A stretch of DNA of 64,000 bases from Escherichia coli (GTDB taxonomy: Bacteria; Pseudomonadota; Gammaproteobacteria; Enterobacterales; Enterobacteriaceae). Made by a program: the position numbers and the translations under genes. A model generated the notes under the pieces. It did no database searches and was not told the origin of the DNA. It was given only the letters and a program-made list of their open reading frames with translations. The number at the start of each line of letters is the position of its first letter. Position 1 is the stretch's first letter. The stretch lies in NCBI RefSeq assembly GCF_036507355.1, contig NZ_AP027877.1; one strand, given 5' to 3'. This document shows, piece by piece, positions 55,713 to 63,707 of the stretch.

Positions 55713-56015
55713 TTCGCGGCATGGCAATTAACTTGCCAGTCAGAGGATATTGTTGTCCGTTATGGTAGCGAAGATTTTGCCATCAAACTTTTTAATGCAA
55801 CATTGCCGGAAGCAGAGACGGTAGCAGCCAGAGTGAAACAAGAACTTAAACTGGCAGCTATCCCGCATCAGGCATCTGCTGTTAGTGCGTTCGTTACGGT
55901 TAGTCACGGGATTACCTGGTCTGCTCCCGCCAAAACGGCTGAACAAATTATTTCAGATGCCGACGCCGCGTTATACCGGGCGAAAGCAAGTGGGCGAAAT
56001 CGATGGGCTTTATAA
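55713..56015 (+). pseudogene. C-terminal fragment of a GGDEF-domain diguanylate cyclase (no start codon, N-terminus absent)
   Basis: open frame translating ...EDIVVRYGSEDFAIKLFNATLPEAETVAARVKQEL...DADAALYRAKASGRNRWAL: degenerate RYGGEEF-type motif and typical GGDEF C-terminal end, but only about 100 codons and no upstream ATG. Confidence 0.6.
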
Positions 56016-56078
56016 CTATTAGGGGACTGGCTAGATTACGTATCTTCGCTCTTAACAAGGACTGACGGCAGGGCAAGA

Positions 56079-56570
56079 TTACGAAAGCCCGCTCCCCGCA
56101 AGGACTGACGCCAGATAGTTTCTGTCCATGGCTGCTTTTCGCATCTTATGTCTTAACCCTGCCTTGAATACCTTATCATTCGTCAAAATATTAATAGCAA
56201 TGTGCCGTATCCCTGGAAATAATTCTGCTGCATTTCCTCTTCTTATTTTGCAGTCGTCTTCATTCATTACCACGTCCAGACGCCAGTGCAGCTTATTCTC
56301 CACGTGCCAGTGGTTTCGGATTGCTGTGGCGAACTTCTCTGCGGTTAAATCAGCAGAACTGATATAATATCTGACCGTCATTTCTGGCTCTTTCTTTTGT
56401 TCTGCTATTATGGACCGAAAGGAGACTGCCACGCATAATTTCTTCAGCCCTTTCCATTCAAACGTGAAATCAATAAGTTCATCAGGAACATCGCAAACAA
56501 TATGAAGACGGATTTCTTCTCTGCCGTGACTAAAATGCGAATTATTTAGTACAAAAAAAGCGGCGCACCT
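56079..56570 (-). pseudogene. ISAs1-family (H-repeat-associated) transposase, 3' remnant
   Basis: translation ...[78 protein letters not shown]... matches C-terminal part of YdcC/YhhI-type H-repeat proteins; upstream part missing (upper limit approximate). Confidence 0.7.
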
Positions 56571-56636
56571 TGTTCTTTCCCAGATTCCTAATATGGCAAC
56601 TTTAAGTTATCGCCGTCTATACTTATAGAAATTTCA

Positions 56637-57092
56637 TCAGGGGTGACATAAATAGAATTTTTTTTCATCCTCAATTGCCCATAACTGATTAATAAAAAAG
56701 TGTTTTTTATCATCTAATAACAAATCATCACATGTAGTAAAATTATTAATATCAAAAAAATCATCAGCACAATTAATTTTTAAATTTAAAAAATAAAGAA
56801 AAATATTATTGATTGATTTGAGTGTAAACCACTTGTCATTAACAAATTTATAGCCAGATGATTTTATAAAATAATAATTATCTCCTGGTATAAAGGCATA
56901 CATATCATTTAAGGTTATACTCAACAAAAAACTACGACCTGGTTTAATAGTATTCCAGCGTTCAGGATTCGTATTAATTTCAAAAGGACATGAACCACCT
57001 AAGTAGTCCAACGTGATATTCCCAGAGTTGATCCTGGATGGTTTTTTGCATATCGCATCATATTCATCTCCTTTTCCATCTTTTACTTTCAT
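56637..57092 (-). CDS. hypothetical protein, AT-rich; candidate immunity/accessory protein
   Basis: 151-aa ORF; start ATG overlaps stop of upstream ORF (ATGA); no recognisable domain. Confidence 0.4.
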   Translation of the reverse strand: MKVKDGKGDEYDAICKKPSRINSGNITLDYLGGSCPFEINTNPERWNTIKPGRSFLLSITLNDMYAFIPGDNYYFIKSSGYKFVNDKWFTLKSINNIFLYFLNLKINCADDFFDINNFTTCDDLLLDDKKHFFINQLWAIEDEKKFYLCHP

Positions 57093-57379
57093 AGGTAGAT
57101 AATATTTAGAAAAAAATACGTGGTAGAGCTATTGTTAGTAAAGGTTATGTTAGCAAAAATCCTGTTATTTTTTTTACTCATAGCTAATTGAGCATTGACA
57201 TCCGCTATATAATTTATATGATTACATTTTTTCTTACACTCATCATAATTTTCGATAGGATAAATTAATGGCCTTCCTTTGATATCTCTCTCAAGCCCAA
57301 ACCCGTATTTTTTTATTAAAACCATTTCATCCGCAGTCGATTGAAAGGAATAGAAAAATATAATATTTACGATTGTCAT
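57089..57379 (-). CDS. hypothetical small protein, candidate immunity protein for the upstream HExxH toxin
   Basis: 96-aa ORF directly downstream of the metallopeptidase-like gene; hydrophobic N-terminus; AT-rich. Confidence 0.35.
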   Translation of the reverse strand: MTIVNIIFFYSFQSTADEMVLIKKYGFGLERDIKGRPLIYPIENYDECKKKCNHINYIADVNAQLAMSKKNNRIFANITFTNNSSTTYFFLNIIYL

Positions 57380-57431
57380 TATTATGATTTTTTTATAGCT
57401 TGCAGCATTAATATATTTCTCGACTTATTAG

Positions 57432-58223
57432 TTAATGGAGAAGTGTTTTTTCTAATTCCGCTATTTTTTTCTTAACTGAATTGCTTAATATTTCATCATT
57501 AATCGAGTCTATCTCACTTTCAATTAATCTTATTTCAAAATATCTTTCTATGTTATATGCATTCTCAAATATTTGATCTTTTTGTTTAGAGATCAGTTTA
57601 GTTGCAATACGGATATGTTCGTCATATGAAACTTCATCCTCTTTGCACGTTGAATATTTATCAGTAGTTGTATAATCCTGTGACCACATACCACCTTTTT
57701 TATTATCCCCATAATACCACTGAATATGAGACATTTCATGACATAAAGTAGCAACATGAGAATCCTTTCCCGTTACTGGATTTTTTTTGCCATCTCTATA
57801 CTCAAATTTTGCGCCTATGTTAATTATATAGGGCATATCCTTACTTGGGCTGACGAATGCTGCAAATTCATTACAACCTGTATAATTTATAAAACTGCTC
57901 ATTGTTAAATCATTAGCTATAATCATTAATCTTCTCACGCCATCCATCATAAGAAATCTAGCATTCATGCGCCTACCTGTATTATGTCCATATTTTCTTA
58001 TATTAACTTCCTTATTTCCTTTAACACCAAAGATCTTACTGAAATAATATTCCTCCTGTGCTCCCCATCTCAAAAGATCATCTGCTCTTTTTATCAAAAC
58101 CAACTTTTGTGCCTTACGAGCCTTATCAATCATTATTTTAAAATGATCAGTTATTTTTTGCTCTTTCACACATTCTTCTGGCTCTGGCTTTGGTTGTCCA
58201 GAAGTTTGATTATTATCGTCCAT
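57432..58223 (-). CDS. HExxH zinc-metallopeptidase-like putative toxin (orphan effector module)
   Basis: ORF 57432..58280; likely start at Met20 (MDDNNQ..., 58223) with SD ggaagga upstream; motif ATLCHEMSHIQWYYGD (HExxH); very AT-rich; sits in T6SS cargo island. Confidence 0.55.
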   Translation of the reverse strand: MDDNNQTSGQPKPEPEECVKEQKITDHFKIMIDKARKAQKLVLIKRADDLLRWGAQEEYYFSKIFGVKGNKEVNIRKYGHNTGRRMNARFLMMDGVRRLMIIANDLTMSSFINYTGCNEFAAFVSPSKDMPYIINIGAKFEYRDGKKNPVTGKDSHVATLCHEMSHIQWYYGDNKKGGMWSQDYTTTDKYSTCKEDEVSYDEHIRIATKLISKQKDQIFENAYNIERYFEIRLIESEIDSINDEILSNSVKKKIAELEKTLLH

Positions 58224-58410
58224 AGTGTCCTTCCATTGAGAGAAAATCATCATTCGCAAATAGCAACTAAAAAGCAGCATTACTTGACCTTTCCCTGCAT
58301 AACAATATTTATAAAATAATACGTTTTATGATCTCACCTTGGGCTCCCAACAAGATAATTTCAGTTTTAAAGACTTTCACGAAAAAAATATAGAAATACC
58401 TCACCACCCT

Positions 58411-58701
58411 TCACTTACCAATTAATCTCACAGGAAATCCAACTTCCTTACCACAAATACAATCCCAAGTAACACCTCCCAAAATTTTTGATACTTTAGG
58501 CTGCAATGGCATTATTGACATTATAAATTTATCAAGTTCTTCGCTATATTTAATTCCCTTTATATTTCTTATTATTGATATTCTAGCAGTAAAGATAGCC
58601 GTCTCTCCATCTACACTAAAAGTGTAATTACAATTTTTTGTAATCTCATCAAATTCAACCGATAACAAATCAATATTATGGTTTGTAAACACTATGCCCA
58701 T
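58411..58701 (-). CDS. small protein, candidate cognate immunity protein
   Basis: 96-aa ORF whose start overlaps the 3' end of the effector gene by 26 nt; no signal peptide evident. Confidence 0.45.
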   Translation of the reverse strand: MGIVFTNHNIDLLSVEFDEITKNCNYTFSVDGETAIFTARISIIRNIKGIKYSEELDKFIMSIMPLQPKVSKILGGVTWDCICGKEVGFPVRLIGK

Positions 58702-60115
58702 TCCATACCTCCTTAAATTCCTGTTCAGTCATCAGATATCGACTCCCTTGATATGGATCATATATTATCACATTCCCAGCATCATCAACACCCTTAACAA
58801 GTACCCAATGCCCTACTTTACTTCCAGAATCCCACATCATTGCTCCCCATGAACCAGTATTACTGAGGGCATATAAACTAGATTCGCTCACTGCATTCCC
58901 TTCCCAGCCGACATCAAATTTATTAAGCTTGTTTGCCAGCGACGTCATAGATGTTAATTCTGTTCCAATTACATTTTGCGTGACAAAAATATACCTATCC
59001 CTAAGCAACATTTCCCCACAGGCCGCTCCACAGCCTGTTAAAGTCAATTGCTTTATTACATTTGAATCTAAAACCTCATCAAATACTGTCCAATTGCCAC
59101 CAGCACCACCTTCTAAAACTACCGGCTCTACAAATACTTTCCCAGAGATATTTTCTTCTGGTATTTTTGCGGGTATCATAAAGCCCCATAAAAAGCTGGC
59201 AAAATGCTCCAGAGCAATCTGATCACCATTATTTGCATCCATTATCATTTTTTTAAGTGCATCCCATGCTTGCCCATTTATCAATGAATCACTAATATTA
59301 AATAAAGCCTGTTCTTTTTCGTTTAAATTTATATTTGCCTGTTCACATAACCCATCTTCGCCTATCGGGCAAGCAACCGTTGCCGTTGCCGTATCTAACA
59401 GAGCATCGAATGTAACTAAGGCTAAATCCGCCACACCATGTAAAGTGGTGATTGCTCCATTCCCCATTTGAGTAAGTGTGTTCTCTACAAACCATTCTCT
59501 AATTTGAGATTTATCTCCTTCAATATCATTCCTGAGAGATTCTCTGATATTCTTTATTGAAAAAAACTCCCCCCATGATTGGTCAGGATCTTTTATTTGG
59601 AATAAATCATTTTTAACCTCAGGTGAAATATCTCCGTCAAAAATATTACCAACAGAGAGGAGATCCTTCAGAAGCAGTAAATCGTGTATTACTTCAGCAG
59701 TCCTTTCATAATTAAAAGTTCTATCAATGACAGAAATCATTGGTGATTTTATTTTGGTATATAATTTACCAAGGCAGTTATGGTTATTAATCCCAACAAC
59801 TGAACCATGATAAGCGACAGGTCTCCCCTCTATTGTTACAGTCGGACTTCCCGTTAAAATAACGCAGTCACCTGTTCCTTGAGATGTACCAGATATGACA
59901 CCTTTACCGGCATTACTTTGAGTTCCAGCAATCACTGAACCAACATTTAAAGCTCTGCATCCACGCGCCCATACCGTTGAACTGTACTGCCTTTCACTAT
60001 CTAAAGTCTGGTAACTGTCAAAAGGAACCTTGTCACCTCCTACTTCACATACATCTGGTGAAGAGCACACGACTTTAAATCTACATTCACCATCCCCGAT
60101 ATGATAGCTACCCAT
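58676..60115 (-). CDS. T6SS effector candidate: N-terminal PAAR-like (DUF4150-type) domain fused to C-terminal papain/C39-like cysteine peptidase domain
   Basis: 479-aa ORF; N-terminus contains SPDVC and GDCVILTGSPTVTIEGRPVAYHGS segments typical of PAAR-like domains; C-terminus has GCGAACGEML (candidate nucleophile Cys) and GHWVLVKGVDDAGNVIIYDPYQG (His/Asp), the order seen in Peptidase_C39-like/papain-fold domains. Confidence 0.6.
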   Translation of the reverse strand: MGSYHIGDGECRFKVVCSSPDVCEVGGDKVPFDSYQTLDSERQYSSTVWARGCRALNVGSVIAGTQSNAGKGVISGTSQGTGDCVILTGSPTVTIEGRPVAYHGSVVGINNHNCLGKLYTKIKSPMISVIDRTFNYERTAEVIHDLLLLKDLLSVGNIFDGDISPEVKNDLFQIKDPDQSWGEFFSIKNIRESLRNDIEGDKSQIREWFVENTLTQMGNGAITTLHGVADLALVTFDALLDTATATVACPIGEDGLCEQANINLNEKEQALFNISDSLINGQAWDALKKMIMDANNGDQIALEHFASFLWGFMIPAKIPEENISGKVFVEPVVLEGGAGGNWTVFDEVLDSNVIKQLTLTGCGAACGEMLLRDRYIFVTQNVIGTELTSMTSLANKLNKFDVGWEGNAVSESSLYALSNTGSWGAMMWDSGSKVGHWVLVKGVDDAGNVIIYDPYQGSRYLMTEQEFKEVWNGHSVYKP

Positions 60116-60698
60116 AATATTTTTTTCCTATACATTCAGGAATAATACAACTCAGCACTCCTTCTTTCATTCCAAAAAAATCAGGTATTGTCAATCTCCA
60201 GGTAAGGTATATTTCCTGTCGATTTAAATCGATAACCATTGTATCCGCAACAGGTAAGAACATATGAGATGTATTATGCTTGGTTTTTAATATAAGTACA
60301 GGTCGTATACCTGGCAATTTTGTCTTAACAACCTGTTCAAATTTAAAAAAACCTTCAAGAGTGATGTTTTCATCGCCAGAGAGAAACCCCGCGTATATCA
60401 TATCCGGATGAGCACTATTGTAGAACCTCTCATCAAAATCATCCGGCAAATAGGGATAGCGCTTTTCACGCCATACTTCATTGTAGGTTCCTGCATACTG
60501 GAGGCGACTTTTCCACCATCGAGATACAGGGCCAACGCCTTGAAAAAAGTCAGATTCCCCATTAAAAATGGTAGCGTTTTCTGACAAAGCAGAGCTGGTT
60601 ATTTGTGGGAGTTTATATTGACAACTTGTATTAAGTTGGGAAATATCAGGATAATATCCACAACCTACAGGGTTTGCTGAAAAAACCAATTTTCCCAT
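60108..60698 (-). CDS. hypothetical protein, possibly 5'-truncated adaptor (DUF2169-like) for the downstream PAAR-like effector
   Basis: 196-aa ORF between vgrG and the PAAR-like effector; frame stays open upstream of the annotated Met without a start; assignment by gene-order analogy only. Confidence 0.3.
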   Translation of the reverse strand: MGKLVFSANPVGCGYYPDISQLNTSCQYKLPQITSSALSENATIFNGESDFFQGVGPVSRWWKSRLQYAGTYNEVWREKRYPYLPDDFDERFYNSAHPDMIYAGFLSGDENITLEGFFKFEQVVKTKLPGIRPVLILKTKHNTSHMFLPVADTMVIDLNRQEIYLTWRLTIPDFFGMKEGVLSCIIPECIGKKYYG

Positions 60699-61517
60699 AC
60701 CATCTGGTTGCCAAATACCACCGTAAGCAAGCTCATAGCGTAGAGGAATATTAATAATTTTATCGTGAGATGCTGATCGTTCGCTACCACAATCTTCTGA
60801 TCATGACTGCCTTCCTTCTTACTCCCAACATTCACCGTCTGACCCACACCCACCGTAATTTTCTGGTTATTGGTTATGGTTTCCGTGTGGTCGTGTTTCA
60901 CCGTCGTCGTCCGGTCATTCAGCACCTCCGTATCCATGTTCTTCTGCGCATGGATATACACCTGCTCATTACTGGTGGCGTCTTCAAACCGCAGCTCGTT
61001 AAATCCGCTTCCTTTATAGGTTTTTGACCGGATGGTCATCTGCGTCTTCGTTCCCGGCAGGTCGCCCGGCGAACGGTTGTCCTCATGGTAGGTCCGCCCC
61101 ATGATTATCGGCTGGTCCGGGTCGCCGTTCAGAAAATCAACAATCACCTCCTGGCCCACCCGCGGTATCGCCAGGTTACCGAACCCCGGCCCCGCCCACG
61201 CCTGCGATACCCGCACCCAGCATGAACTCGCCTCCGTCATCCCGTGATAACGGTCCCAGTGGAACTTCACCCGTACCCGGCCATGTTCATCGCAGAAGAT
61301 TTCCTCTCCCGCAGGCCCGGTGACAATGGCACTCTGCGGCCCGTCCACCTTCGGTTTGCTTTGCAGCCGTGGACGCCACGTCCGGTCCGCCGGTATCACC
61401 TCTAACTGATTTCCCAGCGTGGTTCCTCTCCCTTGGCTGCCGTGCAGCGCCTGCGGCTGGTTTCCTGACAGAATGCTCTGTACCACCTGCCATTCACGGT
61501 TCAGCATCTTCTGCGGA
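60665..61517 (-). pseudogene. vgrG: vgrG (T6SS spike), distal part, downstream of IS insertion; 3' end abruptly AT-rich
   Basis: translation ...PQKMLNREWQVVQSILSGNQPQALHGSQGRGTTLGNQLEVIPADRTWRPRLQSKPKVDGPQSAIVTGPAGEEIFCDEHGRVRVKFHWDR... (gp5-like region); continues the reading frame of the proximal part across the insertion. Confidence 0.85.
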
Positions 61518-61560
61518 TGAGGTGTACTGGCAATAGCGGACACTACCATTTGTTCTTTTT

Positions 61561-62379
61561 TTAAGCAGCCATCTGATGATATTTTTCCCTGAAGGCTGCC
61601 GGGGAGATATTCCCCAGACGAGAGTGACGACGCTGACGATTGTAGAAAATCTCAATGTATTCCCGTATTACTGAGATGGCTTCATCCCGGTTATTAAAAC
61701 GATAGTGGCTCAGGCTCTCATTTTTCAGCGTTCCCCAGAAGCTTTCCATCGGAGCGTTGTCGTAACAGTTACCTTTACGCGACATTGATGTTTTCAGACC
61801 AAACTGCTCCTGTATGACCCGGTAATCGTATGCGCAGTACTGTGAACCTCGATCAGAGTGGTGGATTAGCCCGGCAGGTGGGCGCTGTCTCCTGAGCGCC
61901 ATAAACAGGGCTTTACCTGTCAGCTCTTTTGTCATGCGCTCTCCCATGGCGTAGCCGACAATTTCGCACGTATAAACATCTTTGATGCCAGCGAGGTACA
62001 ACCATCCCTCCTGTGTGGCAACATACGTCAGGTCCGCCACCCAGACCTGATTTGGTGCTGTAGGAGCGAACGTCTGGTTCAGCAGATTTGGCGCAACTGG
62101 CAGATTGTGGTTCGAGTTCGTAGTCGCTCTGAACTTGCGTTTCTGCTTACAGCGTAGCCTTAGCTCCTTACGAAGACGTGCCAGTCGGTCACGACCAACG
62201 ATGATGCCATTCTCTGCCAGCTCCGTCTGGAGCCGCCGGGTTCCATATGTTTCGCGAGTGCGGATATGTGCCACCTTAATCTCCAGTTTTAGCCGCTCAT
62301 CACTTTGTTTTCTGTCTGAGGGTTCATGCTGTACCCAGTTGTAATAACCGCTCCTGGATACACCAAATACCTGACACAT
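61561..62379 (-). CDS. IS3-family transposase OrfB (DDE integrase domain; expressed as OrfAB by -1 frameshift)
   Basis: 272-aa ORF with DDE-type region (...VWVADLTYV...HHSDRGSQY...CYDNAPMESFW...). Confidence 0.85.
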   Translation of the reverse strand: MCQVFGVSRSGYYNWVQHEPSDRKQSDERLKLEIKVAHIRTRETYGTRRLQTELAENGIIVGRDRLARLRKELRLRCKQKRKFRATTNSNHNLPVAPNLLNQTFAPTAPNQVWVADLTYVATQEGWLYLAGIKDVYTCEIVGYAMGERMTKELTGKALFMALRRQRPPAGLIHHSDRGSQYCAYDYRVIQEQFGLKTSMSRKGNCYDNAPMESFWGTLKNESLSHYRFNNRDEAISVIREYIEIFYNRQRRHSRLGNISPAAFREKYHQMAA

Positions 62380-62414
62380 CGCTTCAATGGGAAATTGTTG
62401 TCGCCATTGTTCGA

Positions 62415-62717
62415 TTAACGCGTATTTTTCAGCGACTCCTGTGCAAAATACGCTGTTGCTTTTTTTAATATATCTCGCTCAAGGCGAGCTTCATTTAACG
62501 CCTTACGCAGTTGCAGAATTTCAGATTCCAGTTCAGCCACCGTGCGGGAACCAGGAGTACCGAGCCCTTTTCTGGCGGCGGTAACCCATTGTCCTAAAGT
62601 GCCTTCAGGAAGAGATAATCGGGAAGCGCCTTCACTGATCGAAAGTTGATTTTCAAGAACCGTTCTGACAGCTTCGGCTTTGAACTCTTTAGAGTAACGT
62701 TGGGTTTTTCTGCTCAT
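62415..62717 (-). CDS. IS3-family transposase OrfA (HTH)
   Basis: 100-aa ORF MSRKTQRYSKEFKAEAVRTVLENQLSISEGASRLSLPEGTLGQW...; slippery heptamer at about 62449-62456 near its 3' end. Confidence 0.85.
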   Translation of the reverse strand: MSRKTQRYSKEFKAEAVRTVLENQLSISEGASRLSLPEGTLGQWVTAARKGLGTPGSRTVAELESEILQLRKALNEARLERDILKKATAYFAQESLKNTR

Positions 62718-62781
62718 TATTAGCTCCTTCTGATGCCATTCTATTTCAGGAAGGAGTGTCCGTTAAACTCAGGCTACCTCA

Positions 62782-63707
62782 GGATGCCCCGTCAGCGTAA
62801 ACCGCGTTCCCGGCCACAGCCTCGGCGAATTACTCTGCCCTGTGGCCTTTTCCGCATCACTGCGCAGGCTCTCCATCTGGTACAGCGTGAAATCCTTGCC
62901 GTGCTGCTCATCCTTGAACCTTCCCGGATAATCAAATATTTCATACTGCGCCAGCTGTCCGTTCAGGTTCTCACCCTGCTGCTCATACATCCCCGGCCAG
63001 TCCGGCACCTTAAACGTGTAATCCTGGCTCTGCACCGACGACGGGCGGACATGCGCCTCATAACGGAACATACTGAGACACTCCGTCTCCGCTCCTGCCG
63101 ATGTGTCCGGGTTAAACGGAAGCTCTCCCGCCTGTGACAGCCCCGCCACATCGTCGCACAGCGTCAGCTTCTGCTCCGGACTGTCCGCCGCAAACCGCTC
63201 AAAGAAGAAAATTCCCTCCTCCGCCCACAGCCGGGACAGAAACGCCAGGTCGCTTTCCCCGTACTGGACACAGAACTCCCGCGCCGGATGGTCCTCATAA
63301 AACAGCGGCGTCCACTCCGTGACGCCGTTCTCGTTCAGTAACGTGGCCGATATCGTCCGGATATCCTGCTGCTGGAAGATACGGAAGTTCTGCCGCAGCC
63401 CGCACCGCCATAACGGCGGCTCAATACGCAGGTGATAACGCATCTGCCAGCCGTTATTCTCCTGCATACCAAAACCCGCCACCACGCCGGTGACATAACG
63501 CTGCGCCACTGCGCCCTGCCAGATGGTCAGCGTCGCCTTCTTCTCCAGCAGCATCTCCGCCGTCTGCATAAAAGAGTCGCTGGCAACATCCACACTCATC
63601 ACAAACGGATATGACTGGCTCTGGATTAACCGGAAGCTCACCACTGCAAAGGTGTCCGGCTCCTGGCCGTCAACCTCCAGCGTAAAGCGAAGACCTTTTA
63701 ATGACAT
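62782..63707 (-). pseudogene. vgrG: vgrG (T6SS spike), proximal part (gp27-like), upstream of IS insertion
   Basis: MSLKGLRFTLEVDGQEPDTFAVVSFRLIQSQS... typical VgrG N-terminus; reading frame runs into the IS end (adds EVA then stop). Confidence 0.85.

Follow-up and report, generated by a model that had tools for sequence, protein, structure and literature searches.

An M35/aspzincin-like type VI secretion effector cassette in Escherichia coli, probably a relic stranded by recombination

Peptidases of MEROPS family M35, the aspzincins, are secreted zymogens with an N-terminal inhibitory propeptide. Two M35-type proteins of E. coli have been described as periplasmic toxins in work on type VI secretion systems (T6SS). 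The first report states that the M35-peptidase of strain BCE049 (FQU84_13640; module 5, VgrG-O2) was toxic when equipped with a PelB leader, but not in the cytoplasm (Front Vet Sci 2021, PMC7904677). The second protein, M35-PAR (AKO63_2955 of E. coli PAR), is reported as a periplasmic toxin which is neutralised by AKO63_2956 and which bound the C-terminal part of VgrG in a pull-down (Commun Biol 2023, PMC10673891). A comparable arrangement is known for Tpe1/VgrG2b-Cter and PA0261, a VgrG-associated HExxH peptidase with periplasmic action and its exported immunity protein (Wood et al. 2019, PMC6899460).

The cassette considered here lies in a stretch of 64,000 nucleotides of E. coli DNA (contig NZ_AP027877.1), hereafter called the window. 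It is very probably the relic of a unit consisting of a stand-alone, periplasm-acting T6SS cargo effector with an M35 fold and its exported immunity protein. The features of the region were as follows.

56066-56540, minus strand: ISAs1-family (H-repeat) transposase remnant bounding the cassette, as in EAEC 042
56588-57408, minus strand: partner (immunity) gene, a pseudogene in the window, intact form 273 aa (comparison with EAEC 042 and locus L013)
56658-56665, minus strand: frameshift 3, A8 in place of the normal A7; same indel in BCE049
57111-57117, minus strand: frameshift 2, T7 in place of the normal T8; same indel in BCE049
57389-57395, minus strand: frameshift 1, A7 in place of the normal A8; common to NZ_OZ282453
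57432-58223, minus strand: M35/aspzincin-like T6SS cargo effector gene, 263 aa, intact (homolog alignment)
58213-58268, minus strand: relic of the 3' end of the cognate vgrG, last 17 codons (LLFANDDFLSMEGHYGR) plus stop (comparison with EAEC 042/L012)
58224-58280, minus strand: spurious 19-codon N-terminal extension of the 282-aa ORF, vgrG relic read in the wrong frame
58269-58410, minus strand: spacer of about 142 nt, sequence normally found 3' of cpi1 in the T6SS2-type module
58411-58701, minus strand: cpi1, immunity gene for Cpe1, part of the incoming module
58676-60115, minus strand: cpe1, PAAR-like papain-like cysteine protease effector, 479 aa, full length
60108-60764, minus strand: DUF2169 adaptor gene, 3' part
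60758-61519, minus strand: vgrG middle fragment; the gene resumes at 62782 and runs to 63716 or beyond
61520-62781, minus strand: IS3-family insertion sequence inside vgrG

The original prediction described a HExxH protein of 263 to 282 aa in very AT-rich DNA. The minus-strand ORF of 282 aa (57432-58280) does carry the motif (ATLCHEMSHIQWYYGD), its product is devoid of PAAR, Rhs and signal-peptide regions as claimed, and the GC content at 56-59 kb is 0.31-0.37 compared with about 0.53 in the nar/yddE flank. Only the shorter length holds: every homolog starts at the position of the ATG at 58223, which yields 263 aa, and the 19 additional codons belong to the out-of-frame vgrG relic. This ATG is preceded by a Shine-Dalgarno-like GGAAGG. 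The N-terminus of the family is conserved from residue 1 in the homolog alignment, and the toxin has no cis propeptide. The HExxH residues H162, E163 and H166, whose lack of conservation had been named as grounds for refuting the prediction, were invariant in all 19 aligned homologs, and so were C161, D183 and the C-terminal NAYNIERYF. D183 is a candidate third zinc ligand.

The toxin is a member of a small Enterobacterales family with the M35/aspzincin zinc-endopeptidase fold. It matched the fold of the aspzincin catalytic domain, and a search with the profile of the toxin family retrieved AsaP1 at 1.8e-6 and GfMEP at 1.3e-3, in agreement with M35/aspzincin being among the families initially suggested. 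The Pfam model Aspzincin_M35 (PF14521) recognized the window protein alone weakly (E 0.0054); a precomputed match to it is present in a few relatives. D183 follows the second histidine of HExxH at +17 in the window clade and the equivalent Asp at +9 in short-loop members, the latter being the spacing in the AsaP1 fragment. The aspzincin motif GTxDxxYG is only partly kept, with an invariant Asp while G, T, Y and G are not conserved. A novel or unidentifiable family, at first thought possible, is contradicted by the RefSeq annotation of the effector as 'peptidase M35' and by the earlier tests of the BCE049 ortholog and the PAR relative as periplasmic toxins. When the toxin, the two small ORFs, Cpe1 and Cpi1 were scanned with NCBIfam and PADLOC, ISAs1 was the only match. 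Assignment to NleD/Peptidase_M91 (PF14891), another of the initial candidates, was rejected: the match reached an E value of 0.03 only and no M91 structure was among the fold matches. A housekeeping peptidase, named beforehand as an outcome that would overturn the prediction, was likewise rejected, the gene being accessory, of low GC content and always T6SS-linked.

The two small ORFs downstream of the toxin (57089-57379, 96 aa, and 56637-57092, 151 aa) are joined by an ATGA overlap, as had been noticed, but they are not two genes. Both are fragments of one 273-aa partner gene disrupted by three single-base indels. EAEC 042 (EC042_RS08395) and L013 carry it intact, with a product that has a Sec signal peptide (MLQAIKKIIIMTIVNIIFFYSFQSTA, ending before DE) and two invariant cysteines. 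Intact orthologs and all diverged homologs are each one protein with a length of about 260-310 aa; across genomic contexts these partners are homologous (1e-20 to 1e-77) and carry signal peptides and the two invariant cysteines. Frameshift 1 costs the partner its first 10 codons, corresponding to the n-region of the signal peptide. Frameshift 2 divides the gene in two, with the ATGA overlap as a by-product, and frameshift 3 exchanges the conserved C-terminus, which reads ...IDGRQVKLPY in Salmonella, for KFYLCHP. Homopolymer indels may be sequencing errors; the same indels recur in independent assemblies. Over the partner-gene stretch no complete genome was identical to the window (best 99.4%). 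Pfam detected no domain in the partner alignment, and a word-indexed search with this alignment returned close relatives only, with no annotated domain. In the few lineages examined, slippage at homopolymers has damaged the partner gene more often than the toxin. This pattern of immunity decaying first runs against the common view that it is orphan immunity genes which are kept.

The region upstream of the effector is a mosaic. Identity of 98-99% to the PAAR-vgrG-M35-immunity locus of EAEC 042/L012 extends only up to 58268, where homology to EAEC 042 stops, and from 58266 the sequence is homologous to the APEC T6SS2 cluster, which places the recombination junction at about 58266-58268. Upstream of it follows the cpi1-cpe1-DUF2169 module from the T6SS2 cluster. 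The vgrG relic, which runs 11 nt into the effector gene, is identical to the vgrG tail of L012/L013 (Salmonella counterpart: LLFANNNYNTSEGHYGR). Within the incoming module, a deletion of about 800 bp removed the 5' part of the DUF2169 gene together with the 3' end of vgrG, and a 5-bp target duplication of the IS3-family element was deduced from overlapping reference coordinates. An AT-rich spacer of 130 bp with a promoter of its own had been proposed ahead of the toxin. The gap in front of the 282-aa ORF is present (58281-58410), the full distance being made up of the spacer of about 142 nt and the 56-nt vgrG relic. The promoter found no support: the coding strand of 58269-58410 contained neither a promoter-like site nor a terminator, and the number of promoter-like sites in the region was not above chance (19 versus 13.8 +/- 3.3 in shuffles).

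In its usual setting the M35 gene follows vgrG. The order vgrG, M35, partner was found in 10 of 10 diverged contexts; eight show an overlap of 8-14 nt between vgrG stop and M35 start, and gaps of 1 and 5 nt occur in the other two. Among 5,426 complete E. coli genomes, about 514 have the M35 gene, 480 with the direct vgrG-M35 junction and 34 with the orphan junction of the window type. Carriers include EAEC, STEC O145 and ExPEC strains. Since vgrG is cut to 17 codons in the window but full in the 480 genomes and the ten diverged contexts, the window copy is taken as the displaced member. The idea of an orphan toxin-immunity cassette displaced by recombination is thus borne out by the comparison of sequences for what appears to be a T6SS cassette, and the junction illustrates, to the base pair, how a vgrG island can exchange its effector module and leave the earlier cassette behind. 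The cognate vgrGs of M35 genes share a segment of roughly 60 C-terminal residues, the likely effector docking site. Fusions of the M35 domain to VgrG, PAAR and Rhs, which the prediction had recommended looking for, exist among distant relatives; the close homologs are complete stand-alone cargo genes 3' of vgrG.

We propose that a VgrG spike with the docked effector would deliver the toxin into a neighbouring Gram-negative cell. Docking at the VgrG C-terminus is presumed for the window family and agrees with the pull-down available for its relative M35-PAR. The toxin would be harmful in the periplasm only, as published for the 98.9%-identical BCE049 ortholog. The product of the next gene, a Sec-exported and probably disulfide-bonded beta-sandwich, would protect the producer; neutralisation by the partner is published for the PAR homolog, and the partner may act by binding and blocking the peptidase. 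At the present locus, a vgrG-DUF2169-cpe1-cpi1 module from the T6SS2 cluster presumably recombined in and replaced the cognate vgrG save its last 17 codons. The incoming vgrG would then have been cut by the IS3-family element and the 800-bp deletion, and the immunity gene broken by the three homopolymer frameshifts, with the toxin ORF still intact. The cell could tolerate an intact toxin beside a broken immunity gene, since the toxin does no harm in the cytoplasm and lacks a signal peptide. If the cassette is still expressed, transcription reading through from cpe1-cpi1 is the most likely source. The window toxin could still be delivered if another VgrG with the cognate C-terminal segment is encoded elsewhere in the genome.

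Three other explanations were weighed against that of a displaced relic. The cassette might be a working, self-contained module with its own promoter in the spacer, in which the two small ORFs encode two functional proteins, for instance a two-part immunity or an adaptor plus immunity. The intact toxin ORF with all catalytic residues, the Shine-Dalgarno-like sequence ahead of its ATG and the occurrence of the same two-ORF split in BCE049 are in keeping with it. However, intact orthologs and diverged homologs encode one partner protein, the window partner is without the conserved C-terminus and the signal-peptide n-region, the coding strand of the spacer offers no promoter-like site, and the docking vgrG is down to 17 codons. 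The alignment appears to have largely refuted a working module, which we regard as most improbable. A role mainly as an anti-eukaryotic virulence effector, suggested by the host-directed AsaP1, which is toxic to fish, and fungal M35 enzymes and by the pathotypes among the carriers, is very unlikely as well. The constant pairing with a Sec-exported partner is a signature of periplasm-acting antibacterial effectors. According to the reports, the BCE049 ortholog was toxic to E. coli itself, in the periplasm only, deletion of BCE049 effector locus 1 had no effect on mouse survival (PMC7904677), and the PAR homolog was neutralised by the product of its downstream gene (PMC10673891). Some trans-kingdom activity may nevertheless exist.

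Membership of the Tpe1/VgrG2b C-terminal metallopeptidase family is implied by the Commun Biol 2023 report (PMC10673891), which equates M35-PAR with the VgrG2b toxin domain. The logic of the two systems is the same, with a VgrG link, a HExxH motif, toxicity in the periplasm and an exported immunity protein. VgrG2b-Cter, however, is a thermolysin-like gluzincin of the DUF4157 type in which Glu983 serves as third ligand, and its immunity protein is small, whereas the window family has an invariant Asp and gave no sequence or fold match to it. The equation probably conflates two unrelated zincin families, and we give this membership next to no likelihood.

Within the preferred reading, that of a relic of a T6SS effector-immunity pair, the structure of the partner deserves attention. 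Its model, with a core pLDDT of 85-95, had the AsaP1 proenzyme as best match. The immunity protein may, tentatively, correspond to the aspzincin propeptide but be made as an independent protein exported by Sec, and the pair may be a 'split zymogen', although we hold this to be somewhat short of an even chance. The T6SS would fire the catalytic domain, and the separately encoded propeptide-like beta-sandwich would block the active site in the periplasm. A search of the partner profile against the PDB gave spurious hemocyanin matches only, and the partner HMM detected no propeptide signal in any of the collected M35-domain proteins, the longer of which proved to be fusions to PAAR, Rhs or VgrG and not zymogens. 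The split-zymogen idea was not met in the literature searched, and a search for literature pairing aspzincin or peptidase M35 with type VI secretion found none. A propeptide-like immunity protein would offer a testable mechanism for the M35 effector family. As to the substrate, Glu157 of GfMEP is a specificity residue (PMC11985622), and the invariant E226 of NAYNIERYF aligns with it by motif. If this Glu keeps a P1'-Lys-type specificity, one might speculate that Lys- or mDAP-containing bonds of the envelope are candidate targets, for example the C-terminal Lys link of Lpp or the D-iGlu-mDAP bond.

Among described proteins, the BCE049 M35-peptidase is almost the same protein, with 260 of 263 residues identical to the window toxin. 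It is encoded at the same chromosomal locus (yncG ... yddH), next to the same ISAs1 relic, and two of the homopolymers affected in the window carry frameshifts in its partner gene as well. In BCE049 the gene lies directly 3' of a full-length vgrG (801 aa), its start overlapping the vgrG stop, while in the window 17 codons of vgrG are left and the cpe1-cpi1 module sits ahead of the toxin. M35-PAR, for which AKO63_2955 was assigned to a 262-aa gene by position in the RefSeq record and not via old locus tags, is more distant (30% identity to the window toxin, E 5e-32). It lacks the 34-aa C-terminal helical tail, has internal insertions and is encoded in the main metV T6SS cluster, where a DUF2345-type VgrG precedes it; its tested immunity protein AKO63_2956 (308 aa) is homologous to the window partner (E 2e-20). 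The cassette family is therefore already known, and the window holds a decaying copy of a known E. coli T6SS weapon. As a gene it is of small import, since more than 500 complete E. coli genomes have an annotated copy and an ortholog has been tested.

Compared with the MEROPS M35 aspzincins (peptidyl-Lys metalloendopeptidase 1G12, AsaP1 2X3A, deuterolysin 1EB6), the toxin is without signal peptide and cis propeptide, and the window clade inserts 7-10 residues ahead of the Asp. It would be delivered by the T6SS, with an inhibitor encoded separately; in place of a zymogen architecture, the partner protein has a predicted propeptide-like fold. Tpe1/VgrG2b resembles it in motif, VgrG association, site of action and exported immunity and is found either as cargo or fused to VgrG or PAAR, but is set apart by its gluzincin ligand and small immunity protein. 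The orphan modules of Rhs and CDI loci, to which the cassette had been likened, share with it a displaced toxin-immunity pair located 3' of a more recent module, a short piece of the delivery gene left at the junction, here the vgrG relic, and a nearby ISAs1 (H-repeat) relic. The likeness ends at the toxin itself, which is not a detached C-terminal tip but a complete gene with its own start and a conserved N-terminus, and in the window it is the immunity gene that decays while the toxin ORF persists.

The HExxH feature is a real orphan T6SS metallopeptidase toxin-immunity cassette, and the copy in the window is a relic. The cassette is already annotated and its ortholog has already been tested. 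The open reading frame at 57432-58280 was found with its HExxH motif as originally described, and of the proposed length range of 263-282 aa only the lower bound stood. The start methionines of all 19 aligned homologs correspond to the ATG at 58223, and a 56-nt stretch ending 11 nt inside the toxin gene reads in another frame as LLFANDDFLSMEGHYGR followed by a stop codon. This peptide matches exactly the C-terminus of the vgrG preceding the M35 gene in other E. coli loci (L012 and L013), and the Salmonella vgrG ends in the nearly identical LLFANNNYNTSEGHYGR. The 282-aa reading thus adds 19 spurious codons, and the toxin is a 263-aa protein.

Homolog searches against 5.8 billion clusters and 1.84 billion representatives showed the family to be small: at 50% identity, some 25 clusters scored below 1e-30. 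All were stand-alone proteins of 190-306 aa, and the members with a named source came from Escherichia, Salmonella, Buttiauxella, Franconibacter and Rahnella. The residues C161, H162, E163, H166 and D183 and the motif NAYNIERYF were invariant in 19 aligned homologs, and the family profile matched AsaP1 (1.8e-6) and peptidyl-Lys metalloendopeptidase (1.3e-3). The toxin is therefore an aspzincin-fold protein. The family had been thought unidentifiable by eye and possibly novel, a view that the AsaP1 match and the existing RefSeq label 'peptidase M35' do not bear out. The suggested search for homologs fused to PAAR, Rhs or VgrG N-termini was positive among distant domain copies (E 1e-15 to 1e-7), which were located C-terminally in a VgrG (P0100), in PAAR proteins (13 representatives) and at Rhs tips. 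The M35-like domain thus counts as a polymorphic-toxin domain. Membership in the VgrG2b/Tpe1 family, a DUF4157 gluzincin group with Glu as third ligand, was considered and rejected; this family was absent from all sequence and fold results for the toxin.

Experiments on close and more distant relatives have been published. In PMC7904677, the 'M35-peptidase' of strain BCE049 (module 5, VgrG-O2, 'effector locus 1') was toxic to E. coli when provided with a PelB leader and not toxic when kept in the cytoplasm. The BCE049 effector locus (FQU84_13600-13645) occupies the same yncG ... yddH site as the window, and its M35 protein is identical to the window toxin in 260 of 263 positions. PMC10673891 showed M35-PAR (AKO63_2955) to be toxic in the periplasm, to be neutralised by AKO63_2956 and to bind its VgrG in the C-terminal (DUF2345) part. 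Mapped by position in the PAR genome, M35-PAR is a family member that shares 99% identity with P0023 and 30% with the window toxin, and the 308-aa PAR immunity protein is homologous to the window partner. The same paper equates M35-PAR with the C-terminal toxin domain of VgrG2b (PMC6899460); by sequence and fold the two belong to different zincin families, the former being aspzincin-like with Asp and the latter a DUF4157 gluzincin.

Ten independent contexts of diverged members were examined: Salmonella, the E. coli metV T6SS cluster (two tandem modules in PAR), an E. coli T6SS2-type cluster, the yncG locus, Buttiauxella, Franconibacter, Rahnella and two metagenomic contigs. In all ten the M35 gene directly followed vgrG, with the vgrG stop and M35 start overlapping by 8-14 nt in eight contexts and gaps of 1 and 5 nt in the remaining two (L024, L026). 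The next gene invariably encoded a 203-308-aa protein without Pfam match. These partners are homologous to one another (BLASTP E 1e-20 to 1e-77) and carry N-terminal signal peptides and two invariant cysteines. The VgrGs upstream of M35 fall into two broad types, gp5-trimer and DUF2345. A comparison of vgrG 3' ends (loci L003, L006, L009, L012, L014, L020 and L023-L026) showed that all share a homologous C-terminal segment of ~60 aa (G-x-TD-x-x-G-x-TE-x-F ... I-K-V-x-LL; E 1e-13 to 1e-25 across the two types). A helical C-terminal tail of 34-47 aa was present only in toxins accompanying gp5-trimer-type VgrGs. From these alignments we infer that the segment would be the M35 docking site, travelling with the effector and immunity genes; segment and toxin look like a co-inherited docking pair.

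The PAR metV cluster (L020, NZ_CP012379.1 2965770-2974429) contains two tandem paralogous modules. In one, vgrG is accompanied by an M35 of 246 aa and a partner of 203 aa; in the other the vgrG is frameshifted, and M35 and partner measure 262 and 308 aa. RefSeq lists this frameshifted vgrG as a pseudogene, and its 3' half appears to correspond to the 'stand-alone DUF2345 gene' of PMC10673891. Some E. coli records (P0179, P0182) encode fusions in which VgrG Pfam domains run into the immunity protein's C-terminal two-thirds, which implies deletions that took out the M35 gene.

The window is E. coli chromosome, in which the flank narU-narZYWV-yddE-nhoA-yddH-pptA is followed by a low-GC island on the minus strand (GC 0.31-0.41 versus ~0.53 in the flank). 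It is situated between pptA and the PAAR/yncG side, a place occupied in K-12 by the rhsE region. Another gene remnant bordering the island, 70 C-terminal residues of a GGDEF diguanylate cyclase (55803-56015, plus strand; TIGR00254, 9.6e-10), sits between pptA and an ISAs1 relic. A second low-GC patch (0.32-0.35) with two ORFs of ~420 aa lies just upstream of narU (41333-43914, plus strand); the gene at this position is annotated in NZ_OZ282453 as EspR1, a T3SS leucine-rich-repeat effector.

The window copy is a composite of two sources. Positions 56066-58268 share 98% identity with the EAEC 042 locus PAAR-vgrG-M35-immunity-ISAs1, and 58266-60764 share 98.6% with the APEC T6SS2 cluster; the latter stretch takes in cpi1 with 145 nt more, cpe1 and the 3' portion of a DUF2169 gene. 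The incoming side includes:

58411-60115, minus strand: cpe1 and cpi1, directly upstream of the M35 cassette, identity with the APEC T6SS2-cluster copy ~98.6%
61520-62781, minus strand: IS3-family insertion in vgrG (orfA 62415-62717, orfB 61561-62379)

Cpe1 and Cpi1 are a known effector-immunity pair, Cpe1 being a PAAR-like, papain-like cysteine protease that targets GyrB/ParE (PMC12136450). In the window cpe1 is full length (479 aa) and cpi1 encodes 96 aa. The original prediction of a cassette displaced by recombination was right in substance; the junction lies at 58266-58268, and the comparison identifies the cpe1-cpi1 module as the displacing element. Through an ~800-bp deletion relative to APEC E18055 (window ~60758-60764) the DUF2169 adaptor gene breaks off midway and is fused to the vgrG interior, leaving Cpe1 also without an intact adaptor and spike gene. 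A 5-bp target duplication of the IS3-family element was deduced from overlapping reference coordinates. Among 5,426 complete genomes, 480 have the direct vgrG-M35 junction and 34 have that of the window type; some of these 34 (O145:H28 strains, NZ_OZ282453) bear a further deletion from 59177 to 60967.

The two small downstream ORFs (96 and 151 aa) proved to be pieces of a single gene. The partner DNA of EAEC 042 and L013 is ~98-99% identical to the window and encodes one 273-aa protein. Relative to this intact form the window has three frameshifts, all in homopolymers:

near 57395, minus strand: A7 instead of A8
near 57117, minus strand: T7 instead of T8
near 56665, minus strand: A8 instead of A7

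The C-terminus of the intact E. coli partner is the conserved form, matching that of Salmonella (...IDGRQVKLPY), so the window partner is the derived, broken form. Four partner homopolymers and one toxin homopolymer were compared at six loci (window 56588-57408, L001, L002, L021, L029 and L013). All were intact in EAEC 042 and L013. NZ_OZ282453 had one partner frameshift, the window and BCE049 three each, two of them common to both despite different SNP backgrounds, and O145 at least one together with a toxin frameshift. The toxin ORF was intact in the window, BCE049 and NZ_OZ282453 and broken in O145. The A/T-run length changes that inactivate the partner differ in their combination among these four lineages. 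Homopolymer sequencing errors could produce such indels, an explanation that is less likely given their recurrence in independent assemblies. In this small sample of six loci the immunity gene was broken more often than the toxin, which makes sense if the leaderless toxin is harmless in the cytoplasm and kin cells no longer fire it.

Neither a promoter-like site on the coding strand nor a terminator-like site was found in the spacer upstream of the toxin, where the cassette's own promoter had been envisaged, and promoter-like counts in the region did not exceed the shuffled expectation. Read-through from cpe1-cpi1 would be the likeliest source of any M35 cassette transcript.

M35 enzymes are zymogens with inhibitory propeptides of ~15 kDa (PMC11985622). 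This suggests, tentatively, that the immunity protein may be a propeptide-like inhibitor with a gene of its own; profile and HMM searches gave no sequence-level support for relating it to the propeptide. The main value of the locus lies in this lead and in the well-resolved history of module replacement. Orphan modules usually retain their immunity genes; at the six loci compared here the M35 cassette shows the reverse, with the immunity gene decaying.
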